Source: Alphaproteobacteria bacterium (lineage in GTDB: Bacteria > Pseudomonadota > Alphaproteobacteria > Rickettsiales > UBA8987). Taken from it: a stretch of DNA of 64,000 bases. Within the stretch, counting starts at the first letter, position 1. Each line of letters begins with the position of its first letter. The notes under the pieces are model-generated. The model was not told where the DNA came from and did no database searches. It was given only the letters and a program-made list of their open reading frames with translations. Positions 12,684 to 64,000 of the stretch are shown here, in pieces. The position numbers and the translations under genes are program-made. The DNA is taken from assembly GCA_031426355.1 (NCBI GenBank), contig JANPLD010000068.1, positions 71,477-135,476 of the forward strand, in the 5' to 3' direction.

Positions 12684-13166
12684 TTATAATTTTCTGTACA
12701 TAATAAAAGCATCCACCAATCCAAGTTTTGAATGACGGAAACCATTGGGAATAGTGCCTATTATTTCAAAACCTAGAGACTTCCATAAATTTACCGCAGG
12801 AGTATTTGTTGAAACAACAAAGTTGAATTGCATGGCGATATAGCATTCTTTCTTCGCCTGCTCTATCGAATGCATGCCTAGCGCTTTACCAATACCTTTC
12901 CCGTGAAAATCAAGTGATACCATGTAGCTTGCGTTTCCTATGTGATCGCCCAAACCTTTCCGGTTTTTGCGGAGGGCGTACATTCCTGCAACTTTGCCAT
13001 CAATTTCAGCTACGAAGCATTTTGTGTGTTTACCGGTGAAATAATCTATCGCTTCTTCTTTTGAGGTATTGGGAAGAAAAGTATAAGTATCACCACCCTG
13101 AACTACAGCATGAAATATATTCCAGACAGATTCGGAATCGGAAGGTTTATAAGGGCGGATTAACAT
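12684..13166 (-). CDS. GNAT-family N-acetyltransferase
   Basis: 160 aa. The acetyl-CoA binding segment is VSLDFHGKGIGKALGMHSIEQAKK, followed by NTPAVNLWKSLGFEIIG. The start overlaps the stop of the upstream VirD4-like gene (TAATG). Confidence 0.85.
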   Translation of the reverse strand: MLIRPYKPSDSESVWNIFHAVVQGGDTYTFLPNTSKEEAIDYFTGKHTKCFVAEIDGKVAGMYALRKNRKGLGDHIGNASYMVSLDFHGKGIGKALGMHSIEQAKKECYIAMQFNFVVSTNTPAVNLWKSLGFEIIGTIPNGFRHSKLGLVDAFIMYRKL

Positions 13167-14497
13167 TAATCTTTATCTTCATTGTTATCATTAACAATAT
13201 TCCTTTTATTTGCAGTACTATCATGCACTAAAGAAAGATAAGATATATTATTGCGTTTATTTTTATCATTATTTTCCTTTGGCATTTTCATTTCTTTTTT
13301 TGAAATTTCTTGTACTGGTAACCAACTTTCTCCTTTTAATCTGTCTTTAAACATTTCTTTAGGATTTATTTTTTTAAGAAATTTAGGTTTTTGTCCCTCT
13401 TTAAAGAAAAGTAAGTTATTTGACAAAAGTTTAGATAAATATTTATCTCTCATTTTTTCTAATAAAAAGAAAGCTTCTAAAGTTTTTTTATCATTAATTA
13501 AGTATGCTATTTTATTTCCTGAGTTCGCGAAAAAACTGTAAGAGAAATTTTTTAAACAATTTTCAACTTGACTAAAATCATCAAAAACAGAACATAATTT
13601 TATATTATTGTTATAAAGAAGTGGCAAATCTGAAAGAACTTCAGCAGCATAACCTAAAGTATTAAAATTATTAATCATAAGTAATATGGGAATATTACCA
13701 TTACTATTTATCTTTTTTTTGATTAGCTGTTTATAAAAGATAGCTATAAGGGGATTAACTTTTTCTATATCAGTAGAATTAAGAGTTATATAGATAGTTA
13801 TTTTTTCTTTGGAAAGCTTAGATAAATCAAAATCACTATGATAGGTGAAGGTTTTAAGCTTAGGATTAGAAAATTTGTGAATTACATTATTTATTGTAGC
13901 TATAATTTTTGATTTTTCTTCATTAGATTTTTGAAGAAAATTTGCTATTTCTTTGTAAGCTATAGGATGTATTATGTTATTATGCCTATCTAATATAACC
14001 GCTAAATCATATGGAACATCGCTTGAGCTAATTATAGTATATATTTCGGAAAATGTACAAGGTCTTTCAATTAGAGAAACTAAGCAAATTAATAATCCTG
14101 TAAGTAAATTTTTTGCTTCAATATCGCAGGATTCATTTTTTGGAAAAAACCAATGAGAAATCTCTGTCATATCATCTACTATTTCACTAAAATCTCTATT
14201 TATCCAATCTAAAGGATTATAACAATACCCTCTAAGATCTGAAGCTAAAGGATTCCAAATATAAACTTTTTGACCAATTGACTCCCTATAACCGCTTGTT
14301 GCTTTAAAAATTTCTCCAGTTGGATCCTGTACAACTGCGGAATGGTTCCAATTCAATAGATTAGTTATAGCAAAACTTTCTGTCTTATTAGTTCCTATTG
14401 GCCCGCATAGGAGAAAATGATTATTATCATCTACTGAAATTATATTTTCATCATTTCTACCAATTATGATCTCTTTTGAGATTTTTGGTTTTTCCAT
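13166..14497 (-). CDS. VirD4/TraG-like (type IV coupling protein family) paralog, TM-less, with degenerate NTPase motifs
   Basis: HFLLCGPIGTNKTESFAITNLLNWNHSAVVQDPTGEIFKATSGYRESIGQKVYIWNPL...YNPLDWI aligns with the Walker-A region of VirD4/TraG (…APTRSGKGVG…P.LL…S.vv.D.KGE….T…R….G..V….P……NPL…). The Walker-B position reads LLMINNFNTLG instead of llDEF..lG. No N-terminal TM helices. Very AT-rich. Confidence 0.6.
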   Translation of the reverse strand: MEKPKISKEIIIGRNDENIISVDDNNHFLLCGPIGTNKTESFAITNLLNWNHSAVVQDPTGEIFKATSGYRESIGQKVYIWNPLASDLRGYCYNPLDWINRDFSEIVDDMTEISHWFFPKNESCDIEAKNLLTGLLICLVSLIERPCTFSEIYTIISSSDVPYDLAVILDRHNNIIHPIAYKEIANFLQKSNEEKSKIIATINNVIHKFSNPKLKTFTYHSDFDLSKLSKEKITIYITLNSTDIEKVNPLIAIFYKQLIKKKINSNGNIPILLMINNFNTLGYAAEVLSDLPLLYNNNIKLCSVFDDFSQVENCLKNFSYSFFANSGNKIAYLINDKKTLEAFFLLEKMRDKYLSKLLSNNLLFFKEGQKPKFLKKINPKEMFKDRLKGESWLPVQEISKKEMKMPKENNDKNKRNNISYLSLVHDSTANKRNIVNDNNEDKD

Positions 14498-14540: not shown

Positions 14541-14563
14541 AGAGTTAATAAATTATTAACTCT
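14541..14563 (-). terminator. Intrinsic terminator of ppdK (11-bp-arm perfect palindrome followed by a T-run on the minus strand)
   Basis: AGAGTTAATAA-A-TTATTAACTCT overlaps the ppdK TAG stop by 2 nt. The minus strand continues TTTTATG. Confidence 0.55.
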
Positions 14564-21640: not shown

Positions 21641-22609
21641 TTAAAAAGCCTCGAAAGCATCTTCCCAAGTTCCCTGAGTTGCAGCCTTGGTATATTCTGT
21701 TACGCGGTTCTCGAAGAAGTTTGCGTGTTCTACACCGTTAAGGATCTCATCCATCCATGGAAGCGGATTTCTGCTGGTGCCATACATAGGTTGAAGTTCA
21801 AGCTGCATTAACCTTCTATCTGCGATATAGCGGAGGTAATTTTTTACATCTTTAGATGTTAAGCCTTGGATCGAGCCTTCGATATTAAATGCCAGATCAA
21901 CAAACGCGTCTTCATGGGTAATTATCGTGTCGCAGATCTTATATAATCTTTTGTTGAGTTCTTCGCGGTCGATCTCCGGATTTTCTTTTACGAAAGTATG
22001 GAATAACCTGATGATGGAATTAGTGTGAAGTGATTCATCACGAACAGACCATGTAACAATCTGCCCCATTCCTTTCATTTTACCGAAGCGAGGGAAGTTC
22101 ATGAGTATCGCGAATGAACCGAATAATTGCAGGCCTTCTGTGAAGGCACCGAACGCTGCAAGAGTAGTTGCTATATTAATGTTTGAATCAACATTGAACT
22201 GCTGCATGTAATCATATTTATCTTTCATTTCCTTATATTTCAGGAACTCAGAATACATAGTTTCAGGCATCCCCACGGTATCGATCAAGTGAGAATAAGC
22301 ATCAATATGAATAGTTTCCATATTAGAAAATGCTGCGAGCATCATCTGAATTTCAGTTGGCTGAAATACGCGGGAATAGTGCCTCATGTAACAGTTATTC
22401 ACTTCGATATCTGCTTGCGTGAAGAAACGGAATATCTGCGTAAGAAGTTGTTTTTCTTGCGGAGTAAGATTATTTTTCCAGTCTTTTACGTCATCGCCCA
22501 TTGGCACTTCTTCAGGGAGCCAGTGGATACGCTGCTGCGTCAACCATGCTTCATATGCCCAAGGATAGTTGAATGGTTTGAATATTGGTTCTGCTTTTAA
22601 GAGTGACAT
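21641..22609 (-). CDS. nrdB: Ribonucleoside-diphosphate reductase beta subunit (class I R2)
   Basis: 322 aa with the R2 ferritin-like fold signature (…FFTQADIEVNN…, SNMETIHIDAYSHLI, FGAFTEGLQLFGSFA, VRDESLHTN). Confidence 0.93.
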   Translation of the reverse strand: MSLLKAEPIFKPFNYPWAYEAWLTQQRIHWLPEEVPMGDDVKDWKNNLTPQEKQLLTQIFRFFTQADIEVNNCYMRHYSRVFQPTEIQMMLAAFSNMETIHIDAYSHLIDTVGMPETMYSEFLKYKEMKDKYDYMQQFNVDSNINIATTLAAFGAFTEGLQLFGSFAILMNFPRFGKMKGMGQIVTWSVRDESLHTNSIIRLFHTFVKENPEIDREELNKRLYKICDTIITHEDAFVDLAFNIEGSIQGLTSKDVKNYLRYIADRRLMQLELQPMYGTSRNPLPWMDEILNGVEHANFFENRVTEYTKAATQGTWEDAFEAF

Positions 22610-22616
22610 AAAATCC

Positions 22617-22668
22617 TAGAGTTTAGTGGTTAGAATTTAGTGGTCAGAAAACTAACTACTAAACTCTA
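22617..22668. repeat. Intercistronic repeat/hairpin element A (AGAGTTTAG family), between the glycosyltransferase-like stop and the nrdB start
   Basis: Plus strand TAGAGTTTAGTGGTTAG (22617..22633) pairs 16/17 with CTAACTACTAAACTCTA (22652..22668). Direct copies AGAGTTTAG (22618..22626) and AGAATTTAG (22632..22640) are 14 nt apart. It shares a 22/28-nt block with the element at 62632..62692. Confidence 0.6.
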
Positions 22669-23658
22669 ATTACTATTTACTAAATCAACCATATCTTGTG
22701 TAATATTTTTTGAGTTATACAACATATGGTATTTATTCCAACCTTTTTCTGCGATCAGATTTCTCTTCCCTTTATCTATTGTAAACTTCTGTATCTTTTC
22801 TGCAAGGTCTTCCCATTCACTATAATACACCGCTTCAACATCTGGCTCAAACATGGTTTGCAGCTGAGTTTTTTCGTGGATGATAGTAAGCAGGCCATTA
22901 CCAAATATCTGCGCGATCCTGTCAGAGGAATAAAGTGGCGGCTGATAAATATCTTCCACAAATTGCGGAAGATTTAAACCAGTATGGCACTTACGCATTT
23001 CGTCTAAATATTTCTGGCCGTAAGTAATATCCTTTCCCCATAAACCAAGAACATTGAATTTCACTTCGGGAAGATTTGTTTTCACGTAATGCAGGGTTGG
23101 TGTCCGGTAATCACCGCGACCACCAAAAAATATATCATATTCATGATCGGTTTTTTCAAAGCCTTTACCAGTATCTATTGAGCTATCAACCGGATTTGGA
23201 ATGTAGGAAACTTTTAATTCAGGATTTACTTTTTTAAAATCATTTAGCTGGTCGCCGGAAGTTGTAAGAAATAATGCATCTAAAACCGCGGCACGTTCGA
23301 GCAGATATTTTTTTATATGCTCAACCCATAACGCGTCGACATTTATTTCTGCGATCTTTATATTTTTATTTTCTTCCCTGATGATCTGTAGCGTCTCATT
23401 TCTTATCATGTCACAATGAGAAAGAAAAATAATTTCAGGTTTTAATTCCCGAACAGTTTTAATAAGTTTTTTATTTACTGAATTCTCGGAACCAAAACGC
23501 GATTTAAAAAAACCTTCCTGCCTTGCAAGATCACGATTTGAAAATTGGTATACGGAATGGTTATTTCTGATGAGGCCGAAATAGAATTTATAATCACAAT
23601 TATAAAACTGGTGATAATTTTTCTTATATCCGAAATTTCCTACAAATAATATCTTCAC
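22666..23658 (-). CDS. Glycosyltransferase-like protein (CgeB/DUF3880-like, GT-B fold suspected)
   Basis: 330 aa with a GTG start. MKILFVGNFGY... and the overall length and pattern resemble CgeB-type glycosyltransferases. The assignment is tentative. Confidence 0.45.
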   Translation of the reverse strand: MKILFVGNFGYKKNYHQFYNCDYKFYFGLIRNNHSVYQFSNRDLARQEGFFKSRFGSENSVNKKLIKTVRELKPEIIFLSHCDMIRNETLQIIREENKNIKIAEINVDALWVEHIKKYLLERAAVLDALFLTTSGDQLNDFKKVNPELKVSYIPNPVDSSIDTGKGFEKTDHEYDIFFGGRGDYRTPTLHYVKTNLPEVKFNVLGLWGKDITYGQKYLDEMRKCHTGLNLPQFVEDIYQPPLYSSDRIAQIFGNGLLTIIHEKTQLQTMFEPDVEAVYYSEWEDLAEKIQKFTIDKGKRNLIAEKGWNKYHMLYNSKNITQDMVDLVNSN

Positions 23659-23788: not shown

Positions 23789-23878
23789 CTATTTTCTTTT
23801 AGCAGCAGTTTTTTTAGCAGCTGGTTTCTTAGCAGGTGCTTTTTTAGCAGCTGGTTTTTTCTTTGCTTTTGCAGCCAT
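23789..23878 (-). CDS. Small basic Lys/Ala-rich protein (histone-H1-like AKKP repeats), 29 aa
   Basis: Not in the ORF track because it is under 60 aa. The minus strand reads GGAGGAAACT-ATG GCT GCA AAA GCA AAG AAA AAA CCA GCT GCT AAA ... TAG, giving MAAKAKKKPAAKKAPAKKPAAKKTAAKRK. Strong SD and a GC-rich terminator about 30 nt downstream. Confidence 0.6.
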   Translation of the reverse strand: MAAKAKKKPAAKKAPAKKPAAKKTAAKRK

Positions 23879-31594: not shown

Positions 31595-33124
31595 ATGGAA
31601 ACTAAAAAAAAATTAGCCGCAGTAGAAAACAAAGCGGAAACTGCAAACGAGCAGGTAAAGGAACTCCCTCACAATTTTGATGCGGAGCAGTCTTTGCTTG
31701 GCGCTCTCCTCAATAATAATGAATATCTTAACAGGGTTGGGGATTTTTTAATGCCGGAGCATTTCTATGAGCCGCTTCACCAGAAAATATACCAGTCGAT
31801 AAATACTTTTTACGACAAAGGTATAATCGCGAATGCAATAACTCTCAAGAACCAGTTCCAGAATAATGAGGCAATGGAAATCCTTGGCGGACAGAATTAC
31901 CTTCTCCAGCTTAGCTCTAAAGGTATGACCATTATAAGCATCCGGGAATTTGCGACGCTGATCTACAATCTTTATATCAGCCGCCAGCTGATTGATGTTG
32001 CCAATGAAATGCTGGAGCAATCATATAATACTTCCGGCACAGAAACTGCAACTGCGCAGATAGAACAACCTGAAAGTAAATTATTTAATCTTGCTTCCAC
32101 AGGATTCAGTGAGAAAGGTTTTATACACGCTAAACATGCACTTGTGAATGTTGTGAAAATGGCAGACCTTGCTTCACATCATCAGGATAATTTTAATGGC
32201 GTTACTACGGGATTCAAATTCCTCAATAACCTCATTGGGGGATTCAGTAATTCCGATCTTATAATTCTTGCTGCCCGTCCTTCCATGGGTAAAACTGCAC
32301 TCGCTCTTAATTTTGCCATGAACGCGGTTAAGCATGTGAAGAATAAATATGATGAGGATCTTGAGAAATATAAGAATGACCCGAAGGATAAAGAAGCTCC
32401 GGTAATGGGTTCAGTTGCGGTTATTTCCTTAGAGATGTCATCTGAGCAATTATCGACGCGTCTTATTTCCATGAAAACGGGTATAAACGCTGCAAATATC
32501 AGGCTTGGAAGGCTTAACAAACATGGTCCTAATGATGAGCTGGCAAAACTGGTTGATGCCTCTGTGGAACTCCAGCAATTGCCGCTGTTCCTTGATGATA
32601 CGCCTGCCCTAACCATTTCCGCGATAAGAACAAGAGCAAGAAGATTAAAGCGCAAGCATAATATGCAGTTCCTGATCGTCGATTATTTACAGCTTATTTA
32701 CGGCGTAAGTAAAAAGTCAGAGGCAAGCAGGGTACAAGAGATATCGGAGATATCAATGGGACTTAAAACGATTGCGAAAGAGCTTAATATTCCTGTTATG
32801 GCACTCTCTCAACTTTCAAGAAAAGTGGAAGACCGCCCTGATAAAAAACCACAGCTTGCTGACTTAAGGGAATCAGGCTCAATAGAGCAGGATGCTGACG
32901 TTGTGATGTTCATTTACCGTGAAGCCTATTATGAGGAACGTAAAAAACCTTCTGAAGAAAGCAGCGGAGATTTTACCGCATGGCGTGAGAAGATGGAGAA
33001 GATCGATAACGTATCAGAGATAATAATCGCCAAGAACCGTAACGGCCCCATCGGTAACGTAACACTTCACTTCAATAAGAACACCACCGAATTCACTGAC
33101 CCTGCACCTGAGTATGAGAGCTAG
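31595..33124 (+). CDS. dnaB: Replicative DNA helicase DnaB
   Basis: LPHNFDAEQSLLGALL (N-terminal domain), ARPSMGKTALALNFA (Walker A), LIVDYLQL (Walker B) and IAKNRNGP. Confidence 0.96.
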   Translation: METKKKLAAVENKAETANEQVKELPHNFDAEQSLLGALLNNNEYLNRVGDFLMPEHFYEPLHQKIYQSINTFYDKGIIANAITLKNQFQNNEAMEILGGQNYLLQLSSKGMTIISIREFATLIYNLYISRQLIDVANEMLEQSYNTSGTETATAQIEQPESKLFNLASTGFSEKGFIHAKHALVNVVKMADLASHHQDNFNGVTTGFKFLNNLIGGFSNSDLIILAARPSMGKTALALNFAMNAVKHVKNKYDEDLEKYKNDPKDKEAPVMGSVAVISLEMSSEQLSTRLISMKTGINAANIRLGRLNKHGPNDELAKLVDASVELQQLPLFLDDTPALTISAIRTRARRLKRKHNMQFLIVDYLQLIYGVSKKSEASRVQEISEISMGLKTIAKELNIPVMALSQLSRKVEDRPDKKPQLADLRESGSIEQDADVVMFIYREAYYEERKKPSEESSGDFTAWREKMEKIDNVSEIIIAKNRNGPIGNVTLHFNKNTTEFTDPAPEYES

Positions 33125-33129
33125 TTAAT

Positions 33130-33188
33130 AGTTTGAAGATTGAAGTTTGAAGAATTTTCTTCCAACTTCCAACTTTAAACTTCCAACT
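33130..33188 (+). repeat. Intercistronic repeat/hairpin element B (TTGAAG / CTTCCAA repeats) between dnaB and the epimerase gene
   Basis: AGTTTGAAGATTGAAGTTTGAAGAA-TTTT-CTTCCAACTTCCAACTTTAAACTTCCAACT. GAAGTTTGAAG (33142..33152) pairs 10/11 with CTTCCAACTTC (33159..33169), with a further imperfect extension. The architecture (TAG stop, tandem-repeat arm, TTTTCT, inverted tandem-repeat arm, ATG) matches elements A and C. Confidence 0.55.
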
Positions 33189-33191
33189 ATA

Positions 33192-34157
33192 ATGAAATAT
33201 ATCATCACAGGCGCGGCGGGATTCATAGGTTTTCACCTTGCGAAAAAACTTCTATCTGAGGGTAATGAGGTAGTTGGTATTGATAATCTTAATGATTATT
33301 ATTCAGTAAAATTAAAAGAAGACAGACTTAAAATTCTCGAAAATAAAAATTTTACTTTCTACAAAGCCGATATTTCTGATTCCAAAGCTATAGATGATAT
33401 ATTTAAAAAACATTCTGATGCAAATTACCTTATTCACTTAGCAGCGCAAGCAGGTGTGAGGTATAGCTTAGAAAACCCAATCGCTTATGCTAACAGCAAT
33501 ATGCTTGGGCAGGTGGTAATTTTTGATGCTGCATTCAGGAATCTGAAAAACATACCTCAGATAGTTTATGCTTCATCAAGTTCAGTTTACGGGCATCAGG
33601 AAAAAACACCATTCAGTGAGCAGGACAGAGTTGATAAACCAGTTTCACTTTACGCGGCAACTAAAAAATCATGTGAGTTAATTGCAGAAAGTTTCGCGGC
33701 AACCCATAATCTGAATTCTACAGGCTTGCGCTTCTTTACTGTTTACGGAGAATATGGACGCCCTGACATGGCTTATTTCAGCTTCAGCGATAATATACTT
33801 TCGGGTAAGCCGATAAAATTATTCAATGACGGTAACCTCCGCCGGGATTTTACTTATGTTGATGATATTATTTCCGGGATAATTTCTGTTACTCACAGAA
33901 CAAAAAAATCTAAACATGAAGTGTTCAATCTTGGAAATAACAAGCCGGTGGAGCTTAAATATTTTGTAGAAGTTCTCGAAAATGCCTTAGGCAAAAAAGC
34001 AGTTATTGAATATCTGCCGATGCAAAAAGGTGATGTTTACCAAACCTATGCGGATATCTCGCTTGCTGAAAAAGAATTCGGATTCAAACCGAAAACTTCG
34101 ATTGAAGAAGGGCTCGGGAAATTCGTGAAATGGTATAAAGAGTATTTTAAGCGTTAA
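33192..34157 (+). CDS. NAD-dependent sugar-nucleotide epimerase (UDP-glucuronate 4-epimerase-like)
   Basis: MKYIITGAAGFIGFHL (Rossmann GxxGxxG), NLNDYYSVKLKEDRL, and the YAATK catalytic YxxxK. ATG 33192 is preferred over the track's TTG at 33147, which lies inside the hairpin element. Confidence 0.88.
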   Translation: MKYIITGAAGFIGFHLAKKLLSEGNEVVGIDNLNDYYSVKLKEDRLKILENKNFTFYKADISDSKAIDDIFKKHSDANYLIHLAAQAGVRYSLENPIAYANSNMLGQVVIFDAAFRNLKNIPQIVYASSSSVYGHQEKTPFSEQDRVDKPVSLYAATKKSCELIAESFAATHNLNSTGLRFFTVYGEYGRPDMAYFSFSDNILSGKPIKLFNDGNLRRDFTYVDDIISGIISVTHRTKKSKHEVFNLGNNKPVELKYFVEVLENALGKKAVIEYLPMQKGDVYQTYADISLAEKEFGFKPKTSIEEGLGKFVKWYKEYFKR

Positions 34158-36763: not shown

Positions 36764-37090
36764 ATGACAAAAAGAAAAGTTATGACCAGTTTAAATATGT
36801 TAGATGCAGTTTCTGCCTATAATAAAACTTCCTCTCTTGACGGGAAAGGTTTTGGCGTATCACAGGCACCTTCCAGCGATTTTACCTCTCTGGTGGAAAA
36901 AGCACTTAGTGATACTAAAGATAAGTTAGATATTGCGGAAACCTCAACAGCTGGCTCAGTAAAAGGTGATATCAGCCTTGAAGACCTTGCAATAGCAGTT
37001 GCCAATGCGGAAGTAAGCCTCAAGACCTTAGTTTCCATTCGTGATAAACTTGTCAGCGCATTGCAGGATATTCTAAGGATGCCTATTTAG
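36764..37090 (+). CDS. fliE: Flagellar hook-basal body complex protein FliE
   Basis: 108 aa. The C-terminal …AIAVANAEVSLKTLVSIRDKLVSALQDILRMPI matches the FliE C-terminus (…vRnK…AYqeImrMqv). Position after flgC. Confidence 0.8.
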   Translation: MTKRKVMTSLNMLDAVSAYNKTSSLDGKGFGVSQAPSSDFTSLVEKALSDTKDKLDIAETSTAGSVKGDISLEDLAIAVANAEVSLKTLVSIRDKLVSALQDILRMPI

Positions 37091-37127
37091 GTTGATGGTT
37101 GATAGTTCATAGTTTATTGAAAATATC

Positions 37128-38439: not shown

Positions 38440-40821
38440 TCATAATAAAACCTCTGTAATTGCCACCTCCCCCCGCCCGACTTTATCAGACATCTGGTAT
38501 ATTCTGGCGGTAAAGTTAGTTGCTAGAGAACCAAAGTCAGAACTCTGCATACCTTCAGTATAATTAAAACTTGGAGAGGTTATTTTCTCAGTCCTTTTTA
38601 AAGTAGAAGCATCGAAAATGTCTATTTCATATTCTTCCTTAGTTTCAAAAACAGGGATCTCTACACTTGAAGAAAAAGAGATATTACCGCGTGATCTTCT
38701 CAGCCATTGTATATTGATGTCATCATCCATTTCCCTTTCGGCAGAAATATGGACAGGTGAATATGGCTTTAATGAATTTCCAGAAAAGTTAATTTCTTTT
38801 GCGGTAACATCATCTGCACTTTTACCAAAGGTTACAGCTTTTATCCAGATAGTTTGGCCGATCTGTGAAACAGGCATCTCTATCTTTAAAACATTCTCAT
38901 CAAGCAGGATGAACCTGCTGCCTGCAGGATGAGTTTCACCTGCGTAATTTTCTGTACCCTGACGGCCGCGATATAAGTGGCTAAGCGTATATTTATTTAA
39001 TTCTGTCTGGTTGATATTTTTAAACTGAAAATTTTCATTTCCTATCAAAGCTAAATTTCCAAATGATTGTAGATTATCTTCTGTTAGTGATTCTAAAGTT
39101 CCACCGATCAAATTTATATTCAGCTGATTAATTTTATCAATAACAGGGGAGCTGAATTGTAACAGTTCAGTTTCAATAACTCCCATTGTTGCAGGGGAAA
39201 CAATATCAGTTATTTTCTGAAAACCTTCTGTTGCGGAAATATTGCTTACATATATTGCGCAACCATTCCAGTTAGAAGAAGTACCGCAGACAGCCAGATG
39301 CAGATATGCTTTATCTATTGAAGTTTCATTTGGCAAATGATGTGTATCAATTATCTCAAAATAAGTATCGGAGATAGGTTCCAGATTTTCACTGTTATAA
39401 TCAGTCGTAAGTTCCTCATTGGCGGAAGAATAAAAATCATTTTCAAATCTTATTGCAGATATTTTTATCTTGCCTTGCTGCGTGAGTGAGGAAATTATTT
39501 TCAGCTTATAGGTCTCATCATTTTTAATGATGTTCACTATATCGCCTGCTTCAATATATAAATATTCAGATGGCAGTGAGAATTCTATCTTCTGAGTTAT
39601 TGCTTCCTCTTCAAGAAGTAAAGTTTGTGCTATTTTTTCAGCATATGATCTGTTCAATAATAATGGCAGATTAATCTCAATACCGGATGAATTATTTTTA
39701 TCTTCGCGCGAGATGTCAAAATTTCCGACAAGGTAATTATTATTTTCCGATATATAATTAAGGCTGAGGTTTGAAGTAATATTCAGGCTAGATGCATTTT
39801 CAAACAGCATGGTCTCATTATTCTTTTCGAAAATTAATCTGCTAAAATCTATATTTATTTCTTCAGTGTTTTCACTCTGCCTTGGGAAGAATTTCACTTT
39901 ATCACTTTCAACAAAATCAAAAAAGTAACCTGATTGTAATGTTCGCAGGGCTTCTAAAGCTGTGATAGCACCCGAGAGATTATATCCGCTGACAAGTTTA
40001 TTAACATTATTTATTTCTGGAGTTTCAATACCGGCTTTTTTGCAGAGGTCAGAAATTATATTCTTAAGTTCAGCTACCCCTAATTTTCCATTTATCCAAT
40101 GGCCGCGGCTCCATAAATTTCCATCACCCCAGACATTTTTCATATCAGGGTAAAATGGATAGGACCTCGCATCATAAGCCCAAATAAATTTCTGCTCCAC
40201 CATTTCAGAATTCTGCCATTTTGCCAAGGTTCCCTGAAGCGCCGTTCTTTGCGCCAGAAAATCAATATATCCTTTGGATAAATATGGCAGGTTGCCATCA
40301 ACTGAATCAGGATTATAAAAAACATTTGGCTGATTGGCGCAGCCATCAACTGAAGGAAAACCAAACTCAGTGAACCATATTTTTTTACTTTGTGGTACAA
40401 ACTCTGTTTGTTCTGAATCAGGATTTGTATGAGTATTATTCCACCAATATTCAATATTTTTCCAAGCATCTTGAGGTGTTAAATCTGCTTTTACAGTGCG
40501 TTCTTCATCAGTGTAATACCAGTCATAACCTTCACCATTTTCCCAGCCGTCTATAATTTCTTGCTTATCGTATATTCCATTCTGCTCCCTGTCAGTGAGT
40601 GGGAAATATGCATCGATACCGATGAAATCTATATTGTCTGATGCCCATAGAGGATCCATATTATACCAGCCATTTGTGGAATGGTATTCACTCCAATCCG
40701 CTGCGTAACCTATTTTGGTTTCAGACCCCATTATTGTTTTAACTTCCTCTACAAGGGCTATCAGTTCGTCCACTGCCGAGAAACTATCATCAGCATCCTG
40801 AATTTGTGTCAGGCCTTTCAT
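38440..40821 (-). CDS. GTA host-specificity/tail-fibre protein (RcGTA g15-like), C-terminal fragment; the frame is actually open up to the frameshift at 40910..40915
   Basis: The 793-aa ORF begins inside the conserved …VDAFIIGSEMKGLTQI…TKIGYAADWSEY… TIM-barrel-like region of g15-type proteins. Upstream in the same frame, FFTKTNGYNNFILHYADLVKDKVDAFIIGSE is also readable. Confidence 0.8.
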   Translation of the reverse strand: MKGLTQIQDADDSFSAVDELIALVEEVKTIMGSETKIGYAADWSEYHSTNGWYNMDPLWASDNIDFIGIDAYFPLTDREQNGIYDKQEIIDGWENGEGYDWYYTDEERTVKADLTPQDAWKNIEYWWNNTHTNPDSEQTEFVPQSKKIWFTEFGFPSVDGCANQPNVFYNPDSVDGNLPYLSKGYIDFLAQRTALQGTLAKWQNSEMVEQKFIWAYDARSYPFYPDMKNVWGDGNLWSRGHWINGKLGVAELKNIISDLCKKAGIETPEINNVNKLVSGYNLSGAITALEALRTLQSGYFFDFVESDKVKFFPRQSENTEEINIDFSRLIFEKNNETMLFENASSLNITSNLSLNYISENNNYLVGNFDISREDKNNSSGIEINLPLLLNRSYAEKIAQTLLLEEEAITQKIEFSLPSEYLYIEAGDIVNIIKNDETYKLKIISSLTQQGKIKISAIRFENDFYSSANEELTTDYNSENLEPISDTYFEIIDTHHLPNETSIDKAYLHLAVCGTSSNWNGCAIYVSNISATEGFQKITDIVSPATMGVIETELLQFSSPVIDKINQLNINLIGGTLESLTEDNLQSFGNLALIGNENFQFKNINQTELNKYTLSHLYRGRQGTENYAGETHPAGSRFILLDENVLKIEMPVSQIGQTIWIKAVTFGKSADDVTAKEINFSGNSLKPYSPVHISAEREMDDDINIQWLRRSRGNISFSSSVEIPVFETKEEYEIDIFDASTLKRTEKITSPSFNYTEGMQSSDFGSLATNFTARIYQMSDKVGRGEVAITEVLL

Positions 40822-40856
40822 TTCTGAGCCGATGATAAATGCATCTACCTTATCTT

Positions 40857-42146
40857 TTACCAGATCAGCATAATGAAGAATAAAATTATTATACCCGTTG
40901 GTTTTAGTGAAAAAATATGAACTTCAGATGAATCGCAGGTTATATATCCGCGCCATGGCTTATCTATAATATCCATAAAAATCATCGGATAGAATTTTAC
41001 TTTTAGTCCTCTGTTTGTTGCTTCTTCTATAAATCTTAAAATACTTTCATCACTTGGTGTGCCGCCATAAATAGGGCGTTCATCTGCGTAAGTTACCAGC
41101 GCTGCAGTGTCGCGGTTATATCCAGCAACATGCCATTCAGTGGGAAAAGTTTTCGTCTGGGTTTTATATTCTACGCGTGGCGCAACAGTGCAAACATTTG
41201 CATCAAGTGAATTGCCAAACCAGCAGCAAACCAGACTTACATATTCAATATTTGGGAAATTATTTTGTAAATTATCCAAGGCAACTAATGCATCTGCTTT
41301 ACCGCTGGCATTATTCTGATTGATAAATTTTTCTTCACCGGTCTGGTGCCAGATACCTAAAATTTCCACCCCATCTTTTTTACTATGGGTTAAAGTATCA
41401 TAAACAAATTCGCCGCTTCCCGGTATAATATTCACTGCGGTAACATTATTTTCTAGATTGTTTTCATCTCCTGATATTTTTAAATTGCGGATTATCTCAA
41501 AAGTGAAATTCGGTATTCTGCCCCTAAATTCAGTTAGTTCAAAATCTTCAAAAACTATATAGGCAAGGCCACGATATGCAGGGGTTTTATTTTCACCTTC
41601 ATAAGATTCTATTACAGGGTCTGGAAGTTGGGTTTCATCCCCTTTATAGATACTGTAAGAAGCGCAGTAATCATTGGGATTGATCAGATTTGAATCTGCC
41701 CAGACACGGTCGACATAGTCAATTTCACCTTCGCATAATGCAATGGCGATATTTACGAAATAACGGAAATTAGTTTCGGTTTTCCTTTCTACTTTCGCGC
41801 TGCTGCCTTTACCGCCCTGATTGACAGGTGCTCTTTCTTCGACGATCCTGACATTGGTTGACCAGACGATATTACCGGCTATCCTTGTTTTGCCGTAAAT
41901 TATAGGGATCGCGTCACCATAAGAAGATTTCTGTATTGAGAAATCAGTTAGTTTTTTTCCTCGGATTATATTCTTTTCATTCTCACCGAAAAGGTTTGAA
42001 TCAATTGAATTGCCGAGCCTTGTGGCTCCGGCATTAAGCCCTTCTTTAACCTGACCCTCAACAATATTACCGAATACCGGGATCTGCGAAAGACCAAATG
42101 ATTCTACAAAACTATTTGATGCACTTGTTAATACTGTTGTTGTCAT
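40857..42146 (-). CDS. GTA host-specificity/tail-fibre protein (RcGTA g15-like), N-terminal fragment
   Basis: …YGKTRIAGNIVW…FRYFVNIAIALCEGEIDYVDRVWADSNLI…YKGDETQLPDPVIESYEG…PAYRGLAYIVFEDFELTEFRGRIPNFTFEI… matches the conserved N-terminus of alphaproteobacterial GTA g15 proteins. The last 30 or so residues are out-of-frame nonsense. Confidence 0.8.
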   Translation of the reverse strand: MTTTVLTSASNSFVESFGLSQIPVFGNIVEGQVKEGLNAGATRLGNSIDSNLFGENEKNIIRGKKLTDFSIQKSSYGDAIPIIYGKTRIAGNIVWSTNVRIVEERAPVNQGGKGSSAKVERKTETNFRYFVNIAIALCEGEIDYVDRVWADSNLINPNDYCASYSIYKGDETQLPDPVIESYEGENKTPAYRGLAYIVFEDFELTEFRGRIPNFTFEIIRNLKISGDENNLENNVTAVNIIPGSGEFVYDTLTHSKKDGVEILGIWHQTGEEKFINQNNASGKADALVALDNLQNNFPNIEYVSLVCCWFGNSLDANVCTVAPRVEYKTQTKTFPTEWHVAGYNRDTAALVTYADERPIYGGTPSDESILRFIEEATNRGLKVKFYPMIFMDIIDKPWRGYITCDSSEVHIFSLKPTGIIILFFIMLIW

Positions 42147-42158
42147 AACTTCATTAAT

Positions 42159-42584
42159 TTAGTTTTTGATTCTATAAATTTTTACTATCTTTGATCTCCA
42201 CACATCATTAAGGCGATGTTTCACCGCTTTGCCAATCTGGCTGTAACAGTGAATGAGTGCTAGGTTTTCATTATTATATTTCGTGATGAAGCCAGTATGC
42301 TGAGGGAATTTTCCGAACTTCATCAGAAATATATCACCTTCTTGCATCTTATTTTTTTCAATTGAAAGAAGCGAAGCTTCCATTTTTTCCTGCAGTAAAA
42401 ATGTTGAGGGGATACGGGAATATCCTGCTTCATCATTTTGCGTGAGGTCAACTTCGCAATTTTTCAGGACAGTTAGTACAAACCCTATGCAATCAACACC
42501 TATAGCAATATTCCTGCCTTGATGGACAAAGGGAACTCCGATCAGTTTTTCAGCTTCTGAGATTATTTTATTTTGTAAATCCAT
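42159..42584 (-). CDS. NlpC/P60-family cell-wall peptidase (RcGTA g14-like)
   Basis: 141 aa. …GVPFVHQGRNIAIGVDCIGFVL… provides the catalytic Cys context, followed by …HTGFI…LIHCY. Position between the g13- and g15-like genes. Confidence 0.8.
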   Translation of the reverse strand: MDLQNKIISEAEKLIGVPFVHQGRNIAIGVDCIGFVLTVLKNCEVDLTQNDEAGYSRIPSTFLLQEKMEASLLSIEKNKMQEGDIFLMKFGKFPQHTGFITKYNNENLALIHCYSQIGKAVKHRLNDVWRSKIVKIYRIKN

Positions 42585-42586
42585 AT

Positions 42587-43414
42587 CTATACTTTTAATA
42601 TCCTGTCTGTTCCCGGGATATGAGGTTCCCCACGAAAATTAATTATGTTGTCGAATTTGGAGATACAGGTTTGTGAATTTTTATCGCAGCCTACAGAGAC
42701 CTGATATTCATCACCTGTTTCAATATCTTTTATAAGAGAAGTAAGAAGTTTGAATTTGCCTTCTGTGAAATTTGCGATCTCTCTTATAGAACCAGAGTTC
42801 GCGCCGCTTAAGAATGTAATCACCCCTTTTGAGAAATAATTTTTCTCTTCAGTTCGCGCGGTATCAATGAATTCCATTTTATTTATTGTGAATGTAACTG
42901 CTCCTGAGAATGTATGGTCAGCAATATTTATTCCGCATTTGCTATCGCCAAATTTTGCTCTGCAATTAGGTGAGAAATTCTGTGATATTCTGTTTTTAAG
43001 TAATGAAGAATATCCTGATATCTCAATAAATAATTTATCGTCATCATATCTTATTTTTGAAATAAAACCTTTTTTGAGAATTAATTTCCCATCTTCAGGA
43101 GATTCATAATTCAGTAAAAATATTTCTATATCGGCAGAATCTAATTTACTTGATTCAACTTCAGTTTTTGAGATGATATCATCTTCAATAACACTTAAGA
43201 TACTTTCTTTTTTATTAACTGAAAACCCTGAATAATCAGCAAAGATATCAGATGACAGATAAGGTTTATAAATATTGCCGTCATATTGGAATTCCTTATC
43301 GAAACTGGTTAAGGCGATCACTGATCCATCCTTACAGGTAATAAGAATGAATTTTGCTAAGGTTGTTACTTCTTTTGCAAGATGCCCTTTTAAATTTTCG
43401 GAAATGTTTTTCAT
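42587..43414 (-). CDS. DUF2163 / BR0599-type phage protein (RcGTA g13-like hub protein)
   Basis: 275 aa. Contains …TLAKFILITCKDGSVIALTSFDKEFQYDGNIYKP… and the C-terminal CDKNSQTCISKFDNIINFRGEPHIPG motif typical of this family. Confidence 0.78.
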   Translation of the reverse strand: MKNISENLKGHLAKEVTTLAKFILITCKDGSVIALTSFDKEFQYDGNIYKPYLSSDIFADYSGFSVNKKESILSVIEDDIISKTEVESSKLDSADIEIFLLNYESPEDGKLILKKGFISKIRYDDDKLFIEISGYSSLLKNRISQNFSPNCRAKFGDSKCGINIADHTFSGAVTFTINKMEFIDTARTEEKNYFSKGVITFLSGANSGSIREIANFTEGKFKLLTSLIKDIETGDEYQVSVGCDKNSQTCISKFDNIINFRGEPHIPGTDRILKV

Positions 43415-44013
43415 ATTTTTACCTCTATCAATTCAATTTTTGACATTGAAGCTTTGGAGAAATTTTCTGTTGAGTATGAAAGGATATCTGAGTTGAAACG
43501 CGCCGGAACATCGAATTCGAAATCTGCTTTTACCACCACAGAATTTGCAGGAGGACTTGAAAAAGTAATAACTCCATTATTATTCCCGAGGGAAAATCCC
43601 GAAGCCTGCTTAATATTATCAAGATAGACCTATATGCTCTGCGGCACCGGTTTCGTAATTTTTCTCTCAATCTCATAAATCTCATCTCCGTATTTTTTAA
43701 TAAGCTGGAATTGTGTTTTTAAATTATTGCCTGTTCCGAGTATTTGGCCTTTCGCCTGAAAATCTGCCCAGTCTTTGAAGCGGAAGCCATAGGCCATACC
43801 CCGGCGTGCGATAAAGAAATCGCGGATCTTTTCTGCCTGAGCGGTAGAAATATTTTTGAAATCGATCTCATATTTCGCGCGAGGGATTGAATTATTTATA
43901 TTCCGCTTCTCGTGGCCGCTCGTCATTAAATTAACGGAAGTTGAGAATTCCTGACCACCTTGCGCTTTAAAAGAAATATCTGCGGGGAACCTTGCTTCGT
44001 GAAAATCTGTCAT
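43411..44013 (-). pseudogene. DUF2460 protein (RcGTA g12-like) interrupted by an in-frame TAG at 43630..43632
   Basis: The track ORF 43630..44013 (FHEARFPADISF…GGQEF…SGHEKRN…RRGMAYGFRFKDWADF…KPVPQSI*) stops at TAG. The same frame continues for 72 codons (VYLDN…GVITFSSPPANSVVVKADFEFDVPARFNSDIL…) to a TGA that overlaps the g13-like ATG. Together this is about 200 aa, the normal length of the family. Confidence 0.8.
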
Positions 44014-44109
44014 TGGGAATCTCCTATAAAATTATTCTGCGATAGAGATTATAAACTTCCTTTGATGCCGGATTTATATCGGCCTTGCCCCTATTCTCAA
44101 AACGATAGG

Positions 44110-44577
44110 CTATCTGGTAAAAAGCGCCGTTTTGATGATCTGTGGAACATTATCTGCTTCCTCACCATATCCGGCAAAGTAATCTATGTAGATAAACTTT
44201 GCAGAAGGAAGAACATCAAAAAAGAGGAAATATTTTGCCGGAGAAAGATAATAATTCGAAGCAGAAAATGCTGTTTCATCACCATTTTTATCTATCAATT
44301 TTACCGAGTCGATAGAACTTACCGGACCCATCGGCAAATCAACTTCCATTTCAGTTGAACTGCAATATGCAAGGCGCCATTTCTGTGTGATGAGAGAAGC
44401 CTTCATATATTTTTCAGCTTCGATACGAGCTGATTTTATAAGATCCTCAATAGTACTATTTTCTGCATCGCCGCTGATGCGTAAGAATTCCTTTACTTCA
44501 TCTGCTGTTACCGGTTCAATTTCCGGTTCAGTTAATTTTATCAATTCCGGTTTCCTGCTTTTAAAAATTCCGAACAT
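44110..44577 (-). CDS. gp6-type head-tail connector/adaptor (RcGTA g6-like), C-terminus displaced by a frameshift
   Basis: …PVTADEVKEFLRISGDAENSTIEDLIKSARIEAEKYMKASLITQKW… is the gp6-like N-terminal signature. The expected C-terminal …YRFENRGKADINPASKEVYNLYRRIIL* is readable in the -1 frame down to TAG 44024..44026. Confidence 0.75.
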   Translation of the reverse strand: MFGIFKSRKPELIKLTEPEIEPVTADEVKEFLRISGDAENSTIEDLIKSARIEAEKYMKASLITQKWRLAYCSSTEMEVDLPMGPVSSIDSVKLIDKNGDETAFSASNYYLSPAKYFLFFDVLPSAKFIYIDYFAGYGEEADNVPQIIKTALFTR

Positions 44578-44657
44578 GATGCTCCTTTATTTGTATGTTT
44601 AAAATCCTTCTATTTTTAAGATTATGTGCGAAAAAATATGTGCGGAAGGGTGAAAAT

Positions 44658-44694
44658 TCATGTGCCACACCATGAATAAGCATGGCACATGAAG
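44658..44694 (-). terminator. Hairpin/terminator immediately downstream of the capsid gene
   Basis: TTCATGTGCC (44658..44667) pairs with GGCACATGAA (44685..44694), with an inner CCATG/CATGG extension. On the minus strand it is followed by TTTTCACCC. Confidence 0.55.
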
Positions 44695-44701
44695 TAAAAA
44701 A

Positions 44702-45904: not shown

Positions 45905-45912
45905 AATTTTCC

Positions 45913-62156: not shown

Positions 62157-62618
62157 TTATTTCTTTTCAGAACTTTTGATATTGTCGACGAAATCCTCGA
62201 AATCGCCTGCTTTGCTGAAATCTTTATATACAGATGCAAAACGTATATAGGCAACTTTATCTAGCTTGGAAAGCTCACGCATCACTTCCTCACCAATGAT
62301 GTTTGAAGTTATTTCGTTTTCACCTAATTTTTCGAATTTGCTGACTATCTTATCAACTATCGCTTCTATCTGCGCTTCAGTTACCGGGCGCTTTCGCGTT
62401 GAAAGCTGGATAGAGCGGGTGATCTTATCCCTATCAAATAATTTTTTCTCACCATTTCTTTTGGAAACAACAAGTTCACGAAGCTGCACTCTTTCAAAAG
62501 TCGTAAAACGCGAATCACATTTCGGGCAATATCTGCGGCGGCGTATAGAGCTGCCATCCTCAGAAGGTCGGGAATCTTTCACCTGTGTATCGTGAAAACT
62601 GCAAAACGGGCAACGCAT
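62157..62618 (-). CDS. nrdR: Transcriptional repressor NrdR
   Basis: [42 protein letters not shown] is the zinc ribbon, followed by an ATP-cone domain. 153 aa. Confidence 0.95.
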
Positions 62619-62631
62619 TCTATTAGTTGTT

Positions 62632-62692
62632 AGAGTTTAGTCTTTAGAGTTTAGAGGATAGAAGAAAAACTAAACTCTGTAAACTGGACTCT
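62632..62692. repeat. Intercistronic repeat/hairpin element C (AGAGTTTAG family), between the glyA stop and the nrdR start
   Basis: Plus-strand AGAGTTTAG occurs at 62632..62640 and 62646..62654 (14-nt spacing). The inverted CTAAACTCT is at 62670..62678 (a perfect 9-bp stem with the inner copy, plus an imperfect outer extension to 62692). A 22/28-nt block is shared with element A. Confidence 0.6.
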
Positions 62693-62697
62693 TTTAA

Positions 62698-64000
62698 CTA
62701 GAAACAAGCGTCATAAATAGGGAATTTAGCGCAAAGTGCTTCAACCTTATTTTTAACTTTTGTTTCTGTTTCAGTGTTATTTTCAGGGTTTTTAGCAAGA
62801 CCATCAAATACATCACCGATAAGATTTCCAATCTCTTCGAATTCTTTTGCACCAAATCCGCGGGTAGTTCCTGCAGGAGTTCCTAAGCGAACGCCTGAAG
62901 TAACGAAGGGTGGTTGTGGGTCAAAAGGGATAGCGTTCTTGTTACAAGTTAAACCTGCTCTTTCTAAAGACTCTTCCGCTGCTTTACCTGTAAGATTTTT
63001 AGGACGGAGATCACATAAAACAATGTGGTTGTCAGTTCCGCCGGAAACGATATTCAAACCGCGTTTGATAAGAGTTGCTGCGAGGATACGGGCGTTATCT
63101 ATAACCTGTTTTGCATATATCTTGAATTCAGGAGTGTTATCTTCCTTAAAGCAAACTGCCTTTGCAGCAATCACGTGAACTAATGGGCCGCCCTGTATAC
63201 CAGGGAAGATAGCTGAATTGATTGCGCTGGCTAAAGTTATATCATTACCTTTTGCTGTTTTACCAACTGCTTTTTCAGGGAAGTTAGAAAGGATCAAGCC
63301 GCCTCTAGGGCCTCTTAAAGTTTTGTGGGTAGTTGATGTTACAACATCTGCATATGGAAGTGGTGATGGGTATTCACCGGCTGCAACTAAGCCTGCAACG
63401 TGAGCCATATCAACGAGGAAATAAGCGCCAACTTTATCAGCGATTTCACGGAATCTTTTCCAGTCAACAACTCTTGGATATGCAGAGAAACCTGCGATTA
63501 TCAATTTCGGTTTATGCTCAATAGCGAGCTTTTCAACCTGATCATAATCAATAAGGCCATCAGCTTCTTTAACGCCATACTGAATAGAGTTGAACCATTT
63601 ACCTGACTGGTTTGGAGCTGCACCATGAGTCAAGTGACCACCTGCTGCAAGTGACTGGCCGAGAATAGTATCACCCGGCTTTATAAGGGCGGTAAACACT
63701 GCCTGATTTGCCTGAGAACCTGAATTTGGCTGAACGTTAGCGTATTTAGCGTTGAATAAAACGCAAGCTCTGTCTATTGCAAGCTGCTCAACTTTATCGG
63801 CATATTCGCAGCCGCCATAATATCTTTTTCCCGGATAACCTTCGGCGTATTTATTGGTAAATACCGAACCTTGAGCTGTCATTACTGCGCGTGATGCGAT
63901 ATTTTCAGAAGCAATAAGTTCTATTTGATTTTGCTGTCTTTTGAGTTCACCATCAATAGCGGATTTAAGTTCGCTATCAGTTTCTGCATAAGATGCGGTA
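62698..64000 (-). CDS. glyA: Serine hydroxymethyltransferase (5' end just beyond the window)
   Basis: …[39 protein letters not shown]… and [16 protein letters not shown] (PLP-Lys). The reading frame stays open upstream of the track's Met (63882) to the window edge (…[28 protein letters not shown]…). Confidence 0.95.

Follow-up and report, generated by a model that had tools for sequence, protein, structure and literature searches.

Tandem arrays with a 7-nt unit are familiar from bacterial genomes, the STRR heptamers of Cyanobacteria being one example. The closest described system to the one considered here is that of the TAACTGA repeats, which lie between genes in a forward orientation just upstream of start codons and are rarely accompanied by a Shine-Dalgarno sequence; binding by S1, cold-shock or CsrA-like proteins and a role in translational control have been proposed for them (MacGregor 2015, PMC4679880). 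Heptanucleotide units are also the commonest class of long simple repeats, which have been ascribed to polymerase slippage (Mrazek 2007, as summarised in PMC4679880). We analyzed a window of 64 kb (the whole stretch of DNA under study, 64,000 nucleotides with a GC content of ~38%) from an uncultured Rickettsiales-like alphaproteobacterium, in which the spacers directly upstream of nrdB, encoding the ribonucleotide reductase (RNR) small subunit, and of nrdR each carry a hairpin-forming repeat, hereafter copies A and B. We regard these elements as an inverted, hairpin-forming variant of the intergenic heptamer arrays that abut start codons, because here the arrays face inverted arrays and form hairpins of ~25 bp. 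The concrete products of the analysis are the placement of the nrdB operator, three further members of the family in the window, a compensatory pair at the centre of the helix, and (CTAAAYT)n arrays that occur across phyla.

It is well supported that the elements are AT-rich (26-31% GC) imperfect palindromes of 60-90 bp whose arms are inverted arrays of degenerate 7-nt units; that the 5' arm, rich in G and T, abounds in TAG or TGA, the 3' arm being poor in G, with units like ACTCTAA or ATTCTAA; and that each element fills a spacer between genes of the same strand, starting at or inside the upstream stop codon and stopping 2-14 nt short of the next ATG. It is equally well supported that copies A and B are related and belong to a family of AT-rich hairpins that is specific to the lineage and not to nrd genes. 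With the TAACTGA repeats of Beggiatoaceae, Cyanobacteria and Bacteroidetes (PMC4679880) they share the 7-nt unit in 2-6 tandem intergenic copies, the stop-codon-bearing forward orientation that ends a few nucleotides from a start codon, leaders without a Shine-Dalgarno sequence, downstream genes without a common function, and a post-transcriptional or translational role that is only proposed. They differ in their heptamers (ACTCTAA/ATTCTAA, CWTCAAC and CCCTAAC), in their shorter and degenerate arrays, in their alphaproteobacterial host and, above all, in that the array pairs with an inverted upstream array into a hairpin reaching from stop to start, whereas TAACTGA arrays are predicted to be unstructured. 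The period of seven, the variation in copy number between relatives (L001 and L002, below) and the scattered phylogeny recall the long simple repeats with 7-nt units (Mrazek 2007, in the summary of PMC4679880) and the STRR repeats, but the arrays in the window consist of 2-5 imperfect units and form inverted pairs placed exactly between stop and start. The explanation that we prefer, tentatively, for the whole is an inverted heptamer array made by slippage that acts, if at all, in cis on the mRNA at the junction between stop and start.

The exact 9-mer AGAGTTTAG occurs five times in the window against 0.45 expected, at 22618-22626 (+), 22659-22667 (-), 62632-62640 (+), 62646-62654 (+) and 62670-62678 (-), that is, at two loci only, and none of 100 shuffles contained five or more; with one mismatch allowed, the count in the window is at chance level. 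A copy with one mismatch, AGAATTTAG, is present at 22632-22640, and the starts of the direct repeats upstream of nrdB are 14 nt apart, with a linker of 5 nt between the 9-mers. The arms of copy A (22617-22633 and 22652-22668) are 17 nt long, complementary at 16/17 positions (94%) and separated by 18 nt; its fold has an energy of -20.9 kcal/mol (z = -3.5), that of copy B a z of -4.2, and in neither case was any of 200 shuffles equally stable. Composition-based and simple stem-loop scans proved too permissive and were replaced by GC-corrected folding and by autocorrelation at lag 7. When 80-nt windows were folded across the 64 kb with correction for GC content, the top three were copy B (z = -4.6, the lowest of all), an element at 33122-33189 and copy A (third-lowest), each of which forms one stem of ~25 bp with 26-30% GC. 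Tandem Repeats Finder reported a period of 7 or 14 at 22617-22683, 62630-62656 and 33133-33192, the units being degenerate and present in 2-5 copies. The array or hairpin ends 7 nt before the ATG of nrdB, 5 nt before that of nrdR and 2 nt before that of an epimerase gene, and the 5'-arm array of copy A overlaps the final codons of the glycosyltransferase-like gene upstream by ~17 nt.

The original prediction had described a 57-nt gap upstream of nrdB filled almost entirely by one structured element, with two direct copies 14 nt apart, an inverted copy and a 16/17-bp hairpin, and a second copy upstream of nrdR sharing a 22/28-nt block. The counts and shuffles above bear out the repeat, its layout and the pairing of its arms, and Pfam confirmed the identities of nrdB, nrdR and the glycosyltransferase-like gene. 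The spacer is indeed structured but is 56 nt long (22610-22665), and copy B is a related copy whose shared block is 21/24 identical by BLAST; the two copies are each other's best non-self match in a database of 134 kb. The features discussed in the text are compiled in Table 1.

Table 1. Heptamer-based elements, NrdR boxes and neighbouring genes in the 64-kb window.
Feature	Position	Strand	Description
nrdB, ribonucleotide reductase small subunit	21641..22609	(-)	Pfam PF00268, E = 5e-78
Copy A core hairpin	22617..22668	(-)	Glycosyltransferase stop to nrdB; sense 5' arm 22668-22652, 3' arm 22633-22617
Copy A ATG-proximal direct repeat, sense CTAAACTCT	22618..22626	(-)	9/9 complement of 5' arm
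Copy A ATG-distal direct repeat, sense CTAAATTCT	22632..22640	(-)	Paired with 5' arm in minimum-energy fold
Copy A 5'-arm heptamer array	22651..22685	(-)	TTTAGTA AATAGTA ATTAGAG TTTAGTA GTTAGTT; degenerate; Tandem Repeats Finder period 7, 4.7 copies
Copy A 5'-arm 9-mer AGAGTTTAG	22659..22667	(-)	Overlaps last two bases of glycosyltransferase stop TAG (22666-22668)
Glycosyltransferase-like gene, upstream of nrdB	22666..23658	(-)	Pfam PF13524
NrdR box 2, sense ACACAAGATATGGTTG	22686..22701	(-)	All six conserved positions; 15-bp linker after box 1; ends 17 nt before hairpin
NrdR box 1, sense ATACCATATGTTGTAT	22717..22732	(-)	All six conserved positions; within glycosyltransferase coding sequence, outside hairpin
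nrdR	62157..62618	(-)	Pfam PF22811, PF03477
Copy B hairpin	62624..62700	(-)	glyA stop TAG (62698-62700) to 5 nt before nrdR ATG (62616-62618)
Copy B 9-mers	62670-62678; 62646-62654 and 62632-62640		5' arm; direct repeats, 14 nt apart
glyA	from 62698, beyond window edge	(-)	Pfam
Third element, same architecture, other sequence	33122..33189	(+)	dnaB stop TAG to 2 nt before NAD-dependent epimerase ATG (33192)
Half-element	37088..37118	(+)	fliE stop TAG, then GTTGATG GTTGATA GTTCATA GTTTATT; 9 nt before hemC ATG
Short hairpin AGAGTTAATA-ATT-TATTAACTCT	14541..14563	(-)	Starts within ppdK stop TAG; upstream of VirD4-like gene

The original prediction had also held that the motif is found nowhere else in the window, which is right for the exact 9-mer and wrong for the class, since relatives lie at 33122-33189, 14541-14563 and 37088-37118. 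The element between dnaB and the epimerase gene reads TAG TTAATAG TTTGAAGA TTGAAGT TTGAAGA ATTTT CTTCCAA CTTCCAA CTTTAAA CTTCCAA CTA TA ATG, that is, (TTGAAGN)x3, a loop and (CTTCCAA)x4. The hairpin after ppdK, whose downstream neighbour encodes a VirD4-like type IV secretion coupling protein, is a perfect AT-rich hairpin of 10 bp followed by TTTT, and its helix ends, AGAGTT/AACTCT, are those of copies A and B. The 64 kb hold three AGAGTT...AACTCT hairpins, in addition to one hairpin and one half-array of other sequence. The half-array, between fliE and hemC, is without a complementary arm; its heptamer is that of the nrdB 5' arm in the relatives L001 and L002, of whose element it is the best match in the window, and it may be a hairpin element in formation or decay. 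In the lag-7 scan (at least 16 matches in 21; mean 5.4, standard deviation 2.1) only four stretches of the window stood out, all in three intercistronic spacers and with 16-18/21 matches: both arms of the 33122-33189 element, copy B (16/21) and 37086-37120.

The association with nrd genes is suggestive without being compelling. When only ATG is counted as a gene start, the window has 15 spacers of ~30-130 nt between genes of the same strand. Three of them carry full heptamer hairpins, and two of these three are the nrd junctions; if three hairpins are placed at random among 15 spacers, both nrd junctions are hit with p = 13/455, about 0.03, so that the association is marginal. Many copies between unrelated genes had been named as the sign of a generic repeat. 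The elements are indeed dispersed, but their sequences are heterogeneous and they are somewhat enriched at nrd genes.

The same junctions were compared in related loci (numbered with the prefix L). At nrdB, in L001 and L002 (NrdB 93-94% identical, same gene order), the element reads (GTTGATN)x3-4, a loop, and CCATCAACTATAAA CCATCAACCAACAA, the two loci being one heptamer unit apart; in L211-L214 (NrdB 91%, four samples) it is built on GAGTTGA units and reads GAGAATTGAGAGTTGAGTT, a loop, and ACTCAACTCTCAGC ACTCAACTCTAACA; in L216 (NrdB 89%) it is (GTTCTGA)x3 ... CAACTCGTAACTCACAACTAATAAC. The closest relative, L010 (NrdB 98%), has a 12-nt nrdB spacer without the hairpin, which still contains ACTAAATCCTC, resembling one ancestral unit, and L003 and L215 have long AT-rich promoter regions without the element. 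The order of the glycosyltransferase gene and nrdB is common to the window, L001, L002, L010 and L211. At nrdR, L006 carries an orthologue of copy B (E = 5e-9) and L009 (95%; from the sequencing run that also gave L010) a hairpin whose sequence is unrelated and includes CCCTAACCCCTTAA CCCTAACCCCTAGT; no element is present in L005, L007, L008 and L217. The only sample beyond the window with both nrdB and nrdR loci, SRR13608703, has an nrdR element of different sequence (L009) and an nrdB without an element (L010). A locus from another sample, P0125, is also without it, and a scan of metagenome contigs with NrdB as query returned relatives of at most 80% identity, none of which carries such elements. 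Wherever they occur, the elements form one long interrupted stem in which symmetric internal loops of 2-3 nt separate helices of 5-9 bp. The stop codon of the upstream gene is included in the base of the stem or directly adjoins it, and 0-14 nt separate the 3' end of the stem from the next ATG. As a side observation, L007 (59-301, DUF2442) and L008 (1539-1793, DUF4160) have a small inserted gene between glyA and nrdR, at the exact position of the hairpin in the window; the two loci have identical sequence in common upstream of nrdR, so both genes of a DUF4160/DUF2442 pair may be there.

The covariation in orthologous intergenic regions that had been suggested as a check was found at the core of the hairpin. 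Over three lineages and two loci, the 9-bp helix AGAGTTNAG/CTNAACTCT keeps eight of nine positions unchanged, and the remaining one, the centre pair, differs in a compensatory manner: it is T:A at nrdB and nrdR of the window (5' arm AGAGTTTAG, 3' arm CTAAACTCT), C:G at nrdR of L006 (AGAGTTCAG, CTGAACTCT) and G:C at nrdB of L211 (AGAGTTGAG, CTCAACTCT). Like the window, L211 has two copies of the 3' unit 14 nt apart, and its nrdB element can be aligned over both arms to the nrdR elements found in the window and in L006, with AACTCTAACAAC in common. In these comparisons, the sequence of the hairpin turns over fast while its pairing stays. The variant described here is one in which two inverted arrays make a hairpin that bridges stop and start and whose pairing is kept by compensatory change. 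Folding itself has no preferred strand: the antisense folds as well as or better than the sense in five of seven elements, with no consistent bias. A G-U signature that would point to selection on the sense RNA is therefore missing, so that pairing in RNA, pairing in single-stranded DNA and maintenance by a mutational process are not told apart. The conserved helix could also be imagined as a recognition structure for a trans-acting RNA-binding protein or nuclease that would co-regulate the RNR small subunit and NrdR post-transcriptionally. Co-evolution of the stem with such a factor would explain the T:A, C:G and G:C centre pairs of the three lineages, and it would mean a second, RNA-level layer of control on the supply of deoxynucleoside triphosphates, stacked on the NrdR operator; we hold this to be very improbable.

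Arrays of the same heptamer are found well beyond this lineage. A query of public genomes with CTAAAYTCT-N5-CTAAAYTCT returned at least 120 matches, those listed coming from other phyla only, and the figures that follow hold among the matches listed. Tandem (CTAAAYT)n arrays, in which the heptamer may also be written ACTCTAA or ATTCTAA, were present in 91 of 120, from Cyanobacteria, Bacteroidota, Patescibacteria, Acidobacteria, Planctomycetota and other phyla. When arrays with at least three perfect units were read in their G-free orientation, 10 of 49 ended at most 8 nt from the ATG of an open reading frame (ORF) of at least 80 codons, compared with 0 of 49 in the opposite orientation. An inverted copy of the 9-mer within 100 nt accompanied 12 of 123 oriented array regions, most of which fold as the same type of hairpin, and in two such cases, L050 and L128, an ATG follows directly. 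Further examples of (CTAAAYT)n loci, within L011-L130, are L066 (442-520), L111 and L109, beside L050 and L128. The elements in the window extend start-abutting intergenic heptamer arrays, earlier described mainly from Beggiatoaceae, Cyanobacteria and Bacteroidetes, to an alphaproteobacterial lineage.

In the preferred explanation, replication slippage would add and remove heptamer units, as suggested by the difference of one unit between L001 and L002 and by a 5' array that runs on from the upstream codons, and conversion within elements, probably also between elements such as copies A and B, would keep the arms complementary and alike; slippage and conversion together would give fast sequence turnover while the hairpin persists. 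The least certain part is a possible cis effect on translation at the stop-start junction. A G-poor heptamer array beside the ATG may act as an unstructured landing region for ribosomes, as proposed for the TAACTGA arrays, and has almost no potential starts, since each of ATG, GTG and TTG includes a G. Part of this region would be masked by pairing with the complementary upstream array, the stop codon of the upstream gene lying at the base of the resulting stem; initiation downstream may then be damped and linked to ribosomes that reach the upstream stop and melt the stem. With the 3' unit duplicated 14 nt apart, pairing of one copy could leave the other free; in the RNA fold of lowest energy for copy A, the ATG-distal repeat pairs with the 5' arm and the ATG-proximal one is unpaired, which would explain the duplication. 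Translational coupling through the unfolding of an inhibitory intercistronic structure has been described (in the account given in PMC12548453), and the elements resemble that arrangement in their co-oriented neighbours and in a structure that spans the upstream stop and the downstream initiation region; they differ in that coupling is only proposed here and in that a separate nrdB promoter upstream of the hairpin argues against pure coupling. The organism seems to rely little on Shine-Dalgarno pairing, with a Shine-Dalgarno-like 4-mer at -18 to -4 in 11 of 55 window genes (~20%) against a background of 12%. The energy needed to open the region from -18 to +10 has a median of 6.1 kcal/mol and reaches 12.7 at nrdR (rank 3 of 55), 9.5 at the epimerase gene (rank 9) and 8.0 at nrdB (rank 15). 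If the elements do tune translation, they would offer a simple and fast-evolving way to set the expression ratio of neighbouring genes in genomes that rarely use Shine-Dalgarno sequences.

Several observations weigh against this explanation. Occlusion of the start region is modest at nrdB (8.0 against the median of 6.1 kcal/mol), and a promoter at the NrdR boxes would yield nrdB transcripts that have the hairpin but no upstream ribosome, a poor fit to simple coupling. The element is dispensable, since L010 and L005 have lost it with no obvious substitute; copies A and B resemble each other at an E value of only about 0.01 (BLAST, the 134-kb database); and the sense strand does not fold better than the antisense. 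The compensatory change could stem from a mutational process, such as templated repair of palindromes, and not from selection, and the function itself is one that we infer from sequence.

A second reading, which we consider possible though rather unlikely, dispenses with function altogether: the elements would be neutral or selfish by-products, palindromic minisatellites produced by 7-nt slippage and template switching and tolerated only where they do no harm, between stop and start and with arms that bear stops but no starts, and their presence at both nrd genes would be due to chance and shared ancestry. Presence and absence do differ between very close relatives (L010 and the window; L005 and L009), the number of heptamer units differs between L001 and L002, sequences vary from site to site, a half-element without a partner exists (37088-37118), and there is no strand bias in folding. 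Heptanucleotide repeats are, moreover, the commonest long simple class and ascribed to slippage (Mrazek 2007, in the summary of PMC4679880), and the nrd enrichment reaches only p about 0.03 among 15 comparable spacers. On the other side, eight of the nine positions of the 9-bp helix are kept over three lineages and two loci and its centre pair is fully compensatory, hairpins persist at both junctions in several lineages despite the turnover of their sequence, and the (CTAAAYT)n arrays of other phyla, among the matches listed, abut start codons in one orientation only. Should this reading be right, the elements would be a clean example of slippage and templated repair building structured DNA in the only places that a compact genome tolerates.

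The position of every element at an upstream stop codon also raises the question of whether it belongs to the end of the upstream message (glycosyltransferase, glyA, dnaB, ppdK), as protection against 3' exonucleases, as a site of ribosome stalling in the manner of repetitive extragenic palindromes (REPs), as an RNase III site separating cistrons, or as a terminator. Stems of ~25 bp with small symmetric internal loops and the TTTT after the ppdK copy would suit such a role, and REPs less than 16 nt from a stop codon lower translation of the gene before it, with a reported case in the E. coli nrdAB transcript (Liang, Rudd and Deutscher 2015, as cited in PMC12306157). The likeness to a REP near a stop codon is that of an extragenic palindrome placed directly after the stop, between cistrons, and expected to affect the terminating ribosome, with one example in an nrd operon. 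No intrinsic terminator (a G+C-rich stem and a T run) was, however, predicted around copies A and B or the dnaB element. The stems, rich in A and T, are weak per base pair, and folding has no G-U bias towards the sense strand. A terminator would also stop the transcripts from the NrdR-controlled nrdB promoter just upstream. We judge a role at the end of the upstream RNA to be unlikely. The original prediction had itself offered a family of intercistronic terminator or RNA-processing hairpins as its alternative, of which the general form, a family of intercistronic hairpins, holds and the terminator version does not.

A related proposal is that the hairpins are mobile, like REPs or REPINs, and are spread and homogenised within each genome by a REP-associated tyrosine transposase (RAYT) or an IS200/IS605 single-strand transposase that recognises the stem. 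This would explain both the likeness within a genome and the compensatory differences between genomes: copies A and B have one common 9-bp stem, of which L006 and L211 have the C:G and G:C versions, a third AGAGTT/AACTCT hairpin follows ppdK, and the L211 nrdB element is closer to the nrdR elements of the window and L006 than to the nrdB element of the window. We nevertheless regard it as improbable. REPs have a GC-rich stem of 20-40 bp and a terminal GTAG or CGTC tag, and are tied to RAYT transposases (in the description given in PMC3733652); they occur in hundreds of near-identical copies. The elements in the window are AT-rich, heptamer-based and heterogeneous, with no consistent terminal GTAG/CGTC tag seen in their sequences, and the ORFs of the window that were scanned with Pfam, almost all of its predicted genes, yielded neither a transposase nor a RAYT domain. 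The 5' arm runs on without a break from the end of the upstream coding sequence, and a ACTAAATCCTC unit is left in L010, which together point to growth in place rather than insertion. In SRR13608703, furthermore, the nrdR element differs in sequence and nrdB has none.

The original prediction had taken the shared repeat for an operator, bound by NrdR or by another regulator common to nrdB and nrdR, while noting that copy A does not match the published NrdR box. The mismatch stands and the operator does not. An NrdR site consists of two 16-bp boxes separated by a linker of 15-16 bp (PMC13584703, PMC9110341), each with conserved C4, A6, A8, T9, T11 and G13 (PMC13584703). The generic consensus with up to three mismatches misses the boxes in the window, and the six-position definition (PMC13584703), with linkers of 15-16 bp (or 26-27 bp) accepted, recovers a canonical pair at 22686-22732. 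This pair is the only one in the 64-kb window and lies within the last 70 nt of the glycosyltransferase gene, the operator being wholly inside the upstream coding sequence. A looser scan (up to four mismatches to the consensus, box starts 30-33 nt apart) returned the same pair only, and no pair in any of 100 simulated sequences. The pair is kept in all six nrdB orthologues examined (L001, L002, L010, L211, L003 and L215). Around box 1, a candidate promoter, TTGGAA-16-TATAAC, was read by eye and was not called by a promoter scan; nrdB appears to have its own promoter at the boxes.

By these sequence criteria, the predicted NrdR operator of nrdB is the box pair and not the hairpin repeat. The start of box 2 lies 31, 45 and 69 nt from the ATG in L003, L010 and L215, which have no hairpin element, and 92, 99, 107 and 115 nt in the window, L001, L002 and L211, which have it; the element thus adds sequence between operator and ATG over a distance that varies among loci, which makes it part of the leader RNA and not of the operator. 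Recognising this avoids a false annotation, since the NrdR operator of the lineage lies in the glycosyltransferase gene and not in the repeat beside the ATG.

A duplex-DNA operator for one regulator of both nrd genes has some points in its favour. The 9-mer occurs three times at each nrd gene and nowhere else in the 64 kb, the 14-nt spacing of the direct repeats is kept in the window and L211, and an nrd gene follows two of the window's three full hairpins (p about 0.03). As in an NrdR operator, the element is upstream of an nrd gene and partly palindromic, but it repeats 9 nt with a 5-nt linker and fails every NrdR-box criterion: neither strand of copies A and B or of the dnaB element has a 16-mer with the six conserved positions, and no NrdR-like box was found within 400 nt upstream of nrdR (up to five mismatches to the consensus). 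The distance between inverted and direct copies, centre to centre, is 27 nt upstream of nrdB and 24 nt upstream of nrdR, with other values in relatives, a variation not tolerable for a dimeric DNA-binding protein. Close relatives with an NrdR of 93-95% identity either lack the element or have a different one, the same architecture stands at unrelated genes, and the compensatory centre of the helix indicates pairing rather than base-specific contacts with a protein. Of all the readings a duplex-DNA operator is the least likely, and we give it next to no weight.

The two NrdR boxes are near reverse complements of each other, and the operator itself is thus able to form a 17-bp hairpin (22688-22730); in L211 they are almost exact reverse complements.

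The elements were also compared with other known classes. At the gathering threshold, Rfam 15 gave no match in the whole window, and at E values up to 10 it gave chance matches only, to microRNA-precursor hairpins and one antisense-RNA family, far under the thresholds of those families. Read by eye, DnaA boxes, CtrA boxes (TTAA-N7-TTAA), CcrM sites (GANTC) and RNase E motifs gave no consistent fit to all copies, and integron attC sites have an R''/R' orientation opposite to that of the arms.

The surroundings of the nrd loci hold several other features. A 29-codon ORF at 23789-23878 (-), in the gap of 600 nt that lies upstream of the glycosyltransferase gene, encodes a lysine- and alanine-rich peptide, MAAKAKKKPAAKKAPAKKPAAKKTAAKRK, on 15-nt tandem repeats and is followed by a GC-rich terminator-like hairpin; L010 has a similar gene of 40 codons (3076-3198). 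Head and tail genes like those of gene transfer agents (GTAs) lie at 38440-46422 (-) and 51056-52258 (+), split by recA-alaS and another gene, and encode a portal protein, a prohead protease, a capsid protein, a head-tail connector, a DUF2460 protein, a baseplate hub-like protein, an NlpC/P60 protein and a GTA TIM-barrel host-specificity protein. Genes for type IV secretion are found near the nrd loci (13166-14497 in the window and the flanks of L001, L003 and L004), among them a VirD4-like gene, VirB8, CagX and several copies of TrbL/VirB6, and L010 has a gene for an ankyrin-repeat protein near its nrd locus. The type IV secretion and ankyrin genes are consistent with a host-associated lifestyle.

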